Positions 104-306 of a stretch of DNA of 11,668 nt are shown piece by piece (position 1 is the first letter of the stretch; every line of letters begins with the position of its first letter). A program made the position numbers and the translations under genes. This DNA comes from a virus (lineage: Duplodnaviria > Heunggongvirae > Uroviricota > Caudoviricetes). The notes under the pieces are model-generated. The model was given only the letters and a program-made list of their open reading frames with translations, ran no database searches and was not told where the DNA came from. Location: IMG/VR virus record IMGVR_UViG_3300035498_001143; one strand, given 5' to 3'.

Positions 104-123
104 AATATTGTAAGATTTTTAGA

Positions 124-276
124 TATATATAAGCACTTTTATAAGTGACTTCGGGCGATTTGCCGTCCGTAGGGTGAGGGTAACTCACTTCACATACAGT
201 TCAACATTGCTGTAGAGTTTTAAGACTTGCACCGCTTTGACGGAAGAAGCCAACCACTCACCAAATTCAATATATG
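124..276 (+). ncRNA. Putative structured non-coding RNA, class unknown
   Basis: About 46% GC over 131-260 (60/130 by hand count) in strongly AT-rich DNA, just downstream of a promoter, with no ORF. Nested pairings: AGTG144-147/CACT255-258, GGC154-156/GCC249-251, CCGTC163-167/GACGG239-243, enclosing hairpins 172-190, 195-214 and 215-228. Folded by eye only. Confidence 0.6.
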
Positions 277-306
277 GTATAAATACTTTTTATTTTTAGT
301 TTTTAA

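Follow-up and report, generated by a model that had tools for sequence, protein, structure and literature searches.

A structured RNA that probably forms the first domain of CRISPR array transcripts in a cas-less giant gut phage

Introduction

The window analysed here, that is, the whole stretch of 11,668 nucleotides, is very AT-rich phage DNA. The evidence supports the presence, near its start, of a promoter-driven, structured RNA of no recognised class. This RNA is probably the first domain of the primary transcript (pre-crRNA) of a CRISPR mini-array and not a free-standing molecule. We infer that the domain acts in cis on its own transcript, and we give a probability of roughly 0.55 to the reading as a whole, in which the long primary transcript of the array begins with this element as a new structured domain.

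In the usual description of a CRISPR array, a leader that carries the promoter precedes the repeats. Helper RNAs such as tracrRNA and scoutRNA have, to our knowledge, been described in class 2 systems alone. In the present case, a cas-less giant gut phage appears to head each of its arrays with the same folded RNA, in a transcript that would be bracketed by long-range pairings. The RNA probably helps to make or mature guide RNAs. If the domain controls the amount, stability or cutting of these guides, this would add a new layer to CRISPR RNA biology and reveal how phages turn the Cas proteins of their hosts on competing phages, and the domain could be used as a portable element for the expression of multiplexed guide arrays. 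In addition, the domain family is a well-defined orphan RNA for structural study.

A promoter-driven, GC-rich RNA

The element lies in an island of elevated GC content at about 146–262, which has 49% GC compared to about 20% in the flanks (0.49 over 151–250, and 0.15–0.25 on both sides). The island contains no ORF and is located behind a near-consensus promoter (75–103); the sole frame in the RNA region is a TTG frame of 34 aa. The promoter matches the consensus at 11 of 12 positions. Both hexamers are identical in the five module copies that have this promoter, and the 17-nt spacer varies between copies. As the upstream plus-strand gene ends at position 78, the promoter overlaps the last codons of that gene. 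The preliminary description of this DNA had recognised both the sigma-A promoter and the GC-rich, ORF-less stretch in AT-rich surroundings, and both are confirmed by these values.

The core of the element (131–265) folds at −39.3 kcal/mol, with a z-score of −2.8 relative to shuffled sequences. For the longer interval 104–304, the z-score is −2.2, and the minus strand folds worse (z = −1.2). A search of Rfam 15 with Infernal cmscan, which had been proposed as a check, returned no family at the gathering score, and none at E ≤ 10 inside 104–304. Likewise, ARAGORN found neither a tRNA nor a tmRNA in the element. The earlier view that the RNA belongs to no recognised class is therefore supported.

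Fold of the RNA

The fold that is supported by covariation consists of two 5′ hairpins (P1 and P2), which are followed by a three-way junction closed by the long-range helix P3 (Table 1). We consider this support to be good, although short of proof. The structure was fixed on the core alignment, A4, and the pairs were then counted. On this alignment, 97.4% of cells are paired, compared to 38–48% when the 3′ partners are slid by one to three columns. No shuffled alignment attained either the observed covariation score or the percentage paired. In addition, an RNAalifold run on six distinct sequences recovers P2, P3, P4 and P5 unaided. Double changes are seen in five pairs, one of P2 and two each of P4 and P5, in a sample of five to six distinct sequences from one phage lineage, where the changes in copies L028, L025 and L026 are partly shared by descent.

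The pattern of substitutions is consistent with this fold. Between the window and the orthologous core, all eight substitutions fall in unpaired columns (the chance of this is about 0.002). Where paired columns have changed, the pair is kept in 8 of 8 cases relative to L028 and in 10 of 10 relative to L026. The invariant G.U pair in P2 and further G.U pairs in P3–P5 would be A.C on the opposite strand, so the plus strand is the RNA strand.

The helices differ in how constant they are. P1 is variable in length, carries an inserted hairpin of 25–33 nt in other copies, and has two stem positions that change on both sides (C-G/U-A and U-A/C-G exchanges). The arm formed by P4 and P5 contains an 8-nt bulge at 187–194. 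P6 is weak and counts only as a variable arm, because it is invariant in four sequences and replaced by another stem in copy L027. The junction element also has invariant unpaired bases, which are UCACA in the bulge, GUUCAA in the loop, and UUUAAG and CACCG in the junction.

Table 1. Features of the promoter, RNA domain, leader and array in the window.
Feature	Position	Strand	Remarks
Promoter of sigma-A/sigma-70 type	75–105	+	−35 TTGACA at 75–80; 17-nt spacer; extended −10 TG-n-TATTAT with hexamer at 98–103; overlapping TATAAT at 100–105
5′ stalk arm	110–123	+	first transcribed bases; complementary to 689–702
P1 hairpin	134–138/143–147	+	stem variants by eye CACUU/AAGUG, CACC/GGUG, CAUCUU/AAGAUG
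P2 hairpin	152–157/164–169	+	6 bp including an invariant G.U; loop AUUU(G/A)C; 100% paired; one C-G to U-A double change
P3, long-range helix closing the three-way junction	173–181/253–262	+	A256 bulged; 100% paired
P4	182–186/215–219	+	two double changes
P5	195–200/209–214	+	two double changes; T-loop-like GUUCAA loop
P6 arm (weak)	234–238/246–250	+	invariant in four sequences; different local stem in L027
Anti-repeat tail	266–286	+	complementary to CRISPR repeat bases 1–22; 21 pairs, one mismatch, one bulge
U-rich tract	287–304	+	without a strong upstream hairpin, at best a leaky stop; no terminator called; crossed by RNA-library contigs
Conserved hairpin-rich leader	305–500	+	conserved across paralogs
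CRISPR mini-array	501–596	+	two 30-nt repeats, one 36-nt spacer; decayed repeat at about 621–650
3′ stalk arm	689–702	+	just past the array and just before the 711–736 hairpin; complementary to 110–123
GC-rich hairpin with T runs on both sides	711–736		11-bp stem; called on the minus strand as terminator of the minus-strand gene 724–1353

Previously, the RNA had been drawn by eye as a rod capped by three hairpins. From that drawing, the hairpin at 195–214 (now P5) and the idea of a long-range helix that closes a junction survive, whereas most of the other helices do not. The helix 163–167/239–243 and the hairpin 215–228 are broken in paralogs, and the bases of 144–147/255–258 and 172–190 are assigned by covariation to P1, P3 and P4. 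The AU helix that had been thought to close the rod (124–130/270–276) is indistinguishable from chance in such AU-rich sequence. The collection of homologs and test of covariation, which had also been suggested, gave the covarying pairs and the paired fraction reported above, although the resulting fold differs from the rod.

The preliminary description had also suggested that the RNA is possibly a 6S-like decoy for RNA polymerase. Only the size of about 170 nt and the strong promoter speak for this. No Rfam 6S model matches at the gathering score or at E ≤ 10, and the two hairpins and three-way junction form a branched structure without the long rod and central bubble. As the element is furthermore tied to CRISPR arrays, we regard a decoy function as highly improbable.

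Several other pairings were considered. Pseudoknots between the ACUUC motifs (148–152, 187–191 and 225–229) and GAAG (243–249), and an alternative form of P6 (224–229/246–251), were inconsistent across copies when A4 was inspected by eye. A tRNA-like or tmRNA-like reading was set aside on the negative ARAGORN result and on the strand topology: here, the continuous strand through P3 and P4 is the 5′ strand, unlike in tRNA.

The repeated module

The same locus is carried by four IMG/VR contigs, the largest of which is 379 kb. In this sister record, the RNA core of the orthologous copy is about 94% identical to that of the window, and a longer hairpin stands in place of the small one at the 5′ side. 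BLAST identifies five copies of the RNA in the 379-kb record, and a covariance model built here (R1) retrieves exactly these five. The order shared by the copies is promoter, RNA, a conserved leader of about 200 nt, and array. Four of the five head a module comprising promoter, RNA, hairpin-rich leader, CRISPR array and terminator. Each copy has different neighbouring genes, so no protein gene accompanies the module.

The fifth, solo copy (L027:3100–4045, minus strand; G001 near 83300) has the promoter and the RNA followed by a truncated leader and a single decayed repeat. Its P6 has been swapped for another stem, its tail has lost most of the complementarity to the repeat, and the terminal stalk, which is described below, is absent.

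The RNA is an orphan family that is absent from Rfam, and which now has a covariance model and five paralogs per genome. BLAST with the RNA or the leader gave no match in GenBank phages or PLSDB plasmids, two scans of JGI metagenomes gave no match, and no description of such an RNA was found in open-access literature text. In pattern scans of IMG/VR, only this lineage was genuine; the extra matches were GC-rich chance matches and were rejected by R1 or by eye. In the repeat-based scan of IMG/VR, the real arrays among the matches listed were found only in this lineage. One match to Leptospirillia from a scan of a genome collection was also rejected by R1. Homologs of a 209-aa neighbour protein are located on short contigs that do not contain the module.

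One IMG/VR record (G007, 53.7 kb, containing L035) starts and ends inside copies of the RNA and has been classed as having direct terminal repeats. This class is probably an assembly artefact, with the dispersed RNA module taken for the repeat.

Leader, array and terminator

The repeats in the window are a perfect 30-nt pair at 501–530 and 567–596, which are 66 nt apart (family D1). There are two repeats here, compared to 9–10 in the orthologous array of the 379-kb record, where the other arrays have about 10, 3, and 2 decayed repeats. A 30-nt repeat that ends in AAGUAAAU, combined with 36-nt spacers, looks type I-B-like, as judged from general repeat features and not from a host genome. The array can be assigned to the plus strand from three features: its leader is AT-rich, the decayed repeat is at the distal end, and the domain has G.U pairs that fit only this strand. 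The RNA domain is located between the array promoter and the first repeat, on the array strand, and so occupies the CRISPR leader, or 5′ region of the pre-crRNA.

Within the leader, the hairpins at 307–354 and 455–473 have kept their pairing in paralogs while changing in sequence. The leader also contains ATTTACTT (371–378) and a look-alike of the 3′ end of the repeat, AAAGTAAAT (394–402). The block with these two motifs is the only portion of the leader that is retained in the solo copy L027. Promoter-like sites within the leader at 428–455 and 455–484 are not conserved in paralogs.

A scan for terminators of the intrinsic type, using a consensus, called none between 105 and 711. The hairpin that follows the array can be read from its sequence as also terminating the plus-strand array transcript, in addition to that of the converging gene. 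The layout of a 3′ stalk arm followed by a hairpin is the same in L028 and L025.

With its compact junction of about 120 nt, its invariant unpaired bases and its place directly behind a promoter and ahead of a U-rich tract, the element could also be a riboswitch-like or protein-binding leader, which would gate transcription into the array depending on a ligand or on a phage or host protein. However, no alternation between terminator and anti-terminator is evident at 263–304, there is no downstream ORF, and no known riboswitch model in Rfam matches. As contigs from RNA libraries run through 287–304, gating of this kind seems very unlikely.

The placement of the domain has more in common with cis-acting elongation or antitermination elements such as the put RNA of phage HK022 or EAR of Bacillus and other Bacillales. 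Such an element would modify RNA polymerase and allow it to read through the untranslated, hairpin- and U-rich leader and the array. Like these elements, which open long transcripts of phages or operons, the RNA is structured, has no coding role and stands first in its transcript. It sits right behind a strong promoter, about 20 nt after the inferred start in every module and once per transcription unit; no part of the array transcript is translated, and its hairpins are followed by U-rich tracts. There is, however, no similarity in sequence or model: no Rfam family matches at E ≤ 10, EAR included (put may not be in Rfam), and the three-way junction with two hairpins is unlike put RNA, which consists of two stem-loops. 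Furthermore, no strong intrinsic terminator is located between the domain and the end of the array for it to overcome, and the anti-repeat and the terminal stalk are left unexplained. Antitermination complexes are reported to enhance the expression of CRISPR arrays in Gammaproteobacteria (PMC12691694 and its reference 39), and this favours the idea. Taken together, we regard antitermination as unlikely, although it is the most probable of the rival readings.

Evidence for one long transcript

The first transcribed bases are complementary to the sequence immediately past the array, so that the two arms could form a terminal stalk. This inverted repeat (I4) is 24 nt long and 92% complementary. 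The arms are complementary over 14–17 nt in the window and in L005, L028 and L025, with sequences that differ between modules and match within each. Consistent with this, the pairing energy of a module's own arms is −14 to −18 kcal/mol, compared to −3 to −11 kcal/mol for arms mixed between modules. The arms pair in the full-length structures of minimum energy predicted for the window and L028 modules, and the window stalk has one G.U pair, which fits pairing in RNA. These terminal inverted repeats were also considered as the ends of a mobile cassette or transposon; this is unlikely, as the −35 box belongs to the duplicated unit but is outside the inverted repeat.

Contigs assembled from gut metatranscriptomes (four runs from four studies) lie on about 145–530, with bridges over 190–530, 246–534 and 218–432. 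Several of these run from the RNA core through the leader and the first repeat into other spacers, and one is identical to the window over 218–432. Such contigs cannot show the strand, the ends or that a single molecule is involved, and carry-over of DNA is possible. Over 1–100 and 600–1500, there is one short, unrelated piece only, and missing contig cover is no evidence on expression.

The preliminary description had the RNA as free-standing and non-coding. That it stands alone is probably wrong, as there is no convincing terminator after it and no conserved second promoter, and as the stalk pairing and the bridging contigs both point to a transcript that continues through the array. The predicted order in this transcript is promoter (75–103), 5′ stalk arm (110–123), folded domain (131–262), anti-repeat tail (266–286), leader (305–500), CRISPR array (501–650), 3′ stalk arm (689–702) and terminator (711–736).

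The anti-repeat tail

The folded domain is followed by an AU-rich tail that is complementary to most of the repeat. At −16.6 kcal/mol, this tail is the best plus-strand partner of the repeat in the whole window, and the pairing is kept in all five array-bearing modules (−11.9 to −16.6 kcal/mol). Unrelated sites that are equally good occur about twice in about 88 kb of phage strand outside the arrays, so about 0.01 would be expected in the 390-nt interval from start site to array. The tails do not covary with the repeat variants of their own modules, and the weakest complementarity is that of the array-less copy, L027. Under the rule that type I and type III crRNAs carry an 8-nt 5′ handle, if it is applicable here, repeat bases 1–22 are exactly the portion left as the 3′ handle.

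The tail pairs with the first repeat in the minimum-energy structures of the full-length window and L028 modules. When ensembles of truncated transcripts were folded, L005 alone showed strong pairing of this kind, which was weak in the window and in L028, L025 and L026. For this reason, thermodynamics alone does not settle whether the tail pairs in cis.

A folded scaffold with a 3′ anti-repeat could instead function in trans in the manner of a tracrRNA. In that case, it would load guides into an unrecognised effector or, as an antisense anti-CRISPR, would block the processing of host pre-crRNA. The anti-repeat spans repeat bases 1–22 and adjoins the array. Also, the solo copy retains the promoter and most of the fold (with P6 replaced) without an array, which could mean a role in trans and would count against the cis reading. 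However, the 30-nt repeat is type I-B-like, and we know of no type I system that uses a tracrRNA. One copy per array fits action in cis better than in trans, the anti-repeat and repeat do not covary, and it is the solo copy in which the complementarity is weakest. In addition, no Rfam tracrRNA matches at E ≤ 10, no Cas9 was found, and the only TnpB/Cas12-like genes have IS605 domains, with none consistently beside the modules. We therefore consider a tracr-like function in trans rather doubtful.

The likeness to known tracrRNAs is one of layout. As in the tracrRNAs of type V (Cas12b/e/f/k/p) and type II systems, and in the tracr-derived RNAs of phages (vsgRNA and rAcrIIA1), a folded scaffold is joined to a repeat-complementary stretch beside an array. 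The scaffold at the 5′ side, the anti-repeat at the 3′ side and the direction shared with the array parallel the Cas12 tracrRNAs, as described in the part of 10.1101/2025.01.20.633832 used here. The element is also phage-borne, like vsgRNA and rAcrIIA1, and tracr-derived RNAs by which phages subvert Cas9 have been reported (10.64898/2026.06.01.729453). It is unlike tracrRNAs in that the phage records contain no class 2 effector, the repeat is type I-B-like, there is one copy per array and this copy is apparently inside the array's own transcript. Moreover, the domain does not pair with the 3′ end of the repeat, and the sole complement of that end is in the leader at 371–378.

A related and equally doubtful proposal is that the domain and tail are a natural tracrRNA-like partner for type I-like repeats, which would pair with the phage's own repeats and perhaps with those of the host. 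If true, the maturation of guides could be routed via RNase III or an unrecognised protein, or the processing of host crRNA could be shut down. In either case, it would be the first RNA outside class 2 that pairs with repeats as a helper or an inhibitor.

A proposed role in pre-crRNA folding and processing

For the cis-acting 5′ domain, the mechanism that we prefer is that of a scaffold for folding and processing, to which we give somewhat less than even odds. Here, two nested long-range helices would fold the pre-crRNA as stalks fold pre-rRNA. One of these would be the terminal stalk, and the other would form between the tail and the first repeat. They may protect both ends of the RNA and offer double-stranded entry sites to RNase III, which we assume to be that of the host because no RNase III gene was found in the phage records searched. 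The compact, GC-rich junction between the helices would be a stable anchor or a platform for protein binding. The Cas6 and Cascade of a type I-B-like system in the host could then take the guides.

The model for this proposal is the processing stalk of rRNA operons, where the flanks of 16S and 23S pair and are cut by RNase III. As there, the start of the transcript is complementary to sequence just past a non-coding array and the arms covary between copies. The stalk described here differs in being short (14–17 bp) and AU-rich and in surrounding a CRISPR array instead of rRNA, and cleavage is proposed by analogy only. The probability that is left over from the readings discussed falls to a function of some other kind.

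Genes of the phage and its modules

No Cas1, Cas6, Cas7 (DevR), Cas3-HD or Cas9 was found in the phage records searched. Huge phages with compact, cas-less arrays are thought to borrow the Cas proteins of their hosts (Al-Shayeb et al. 2020, PMC7162821), and the module resembles these arrays, as well as virus-borne mini-arrays, in being compact, in having no cas genes and in its location in a huge phage. The section on CRISPR-Cas-mediated interactions in that paper covers arrays and Cas genes, without mention of a conserved RNA fold with which array transcripts begin.

The phage records contain several genes of TnpB type (PF07282), none of which is a consistent neighbour of the modules. Three of these were checked with Pfam and have IS605 domains (HTH_OrfB, OrfB_IS605 and TNB), with a Y1 transposase adjacent in one case. 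The TnpB genes are ordinary IS605 genes and not partners of the module. Elements of the IS200/IS605 type are located at L026:655–2177 (minus strand), L064:550–1740 and L065:427–1797. One such element is about 2 kb downstream of a decayed module, a position that is probably due to chance.

Elsewhere in the window, the interval 1762–4077 contains a thymidylate-synthase-like gene (a weak match in Pfam; thymidylate synthase in PHROG), followed by a radical SAM-like gene. The right end (9211–11667) encodes DnaE, the alpha subunit of DNA polymerase III, with PHP and NTPase domains; this gene contains at least one intein (Intein_splicing and Hint) and runs off the window.
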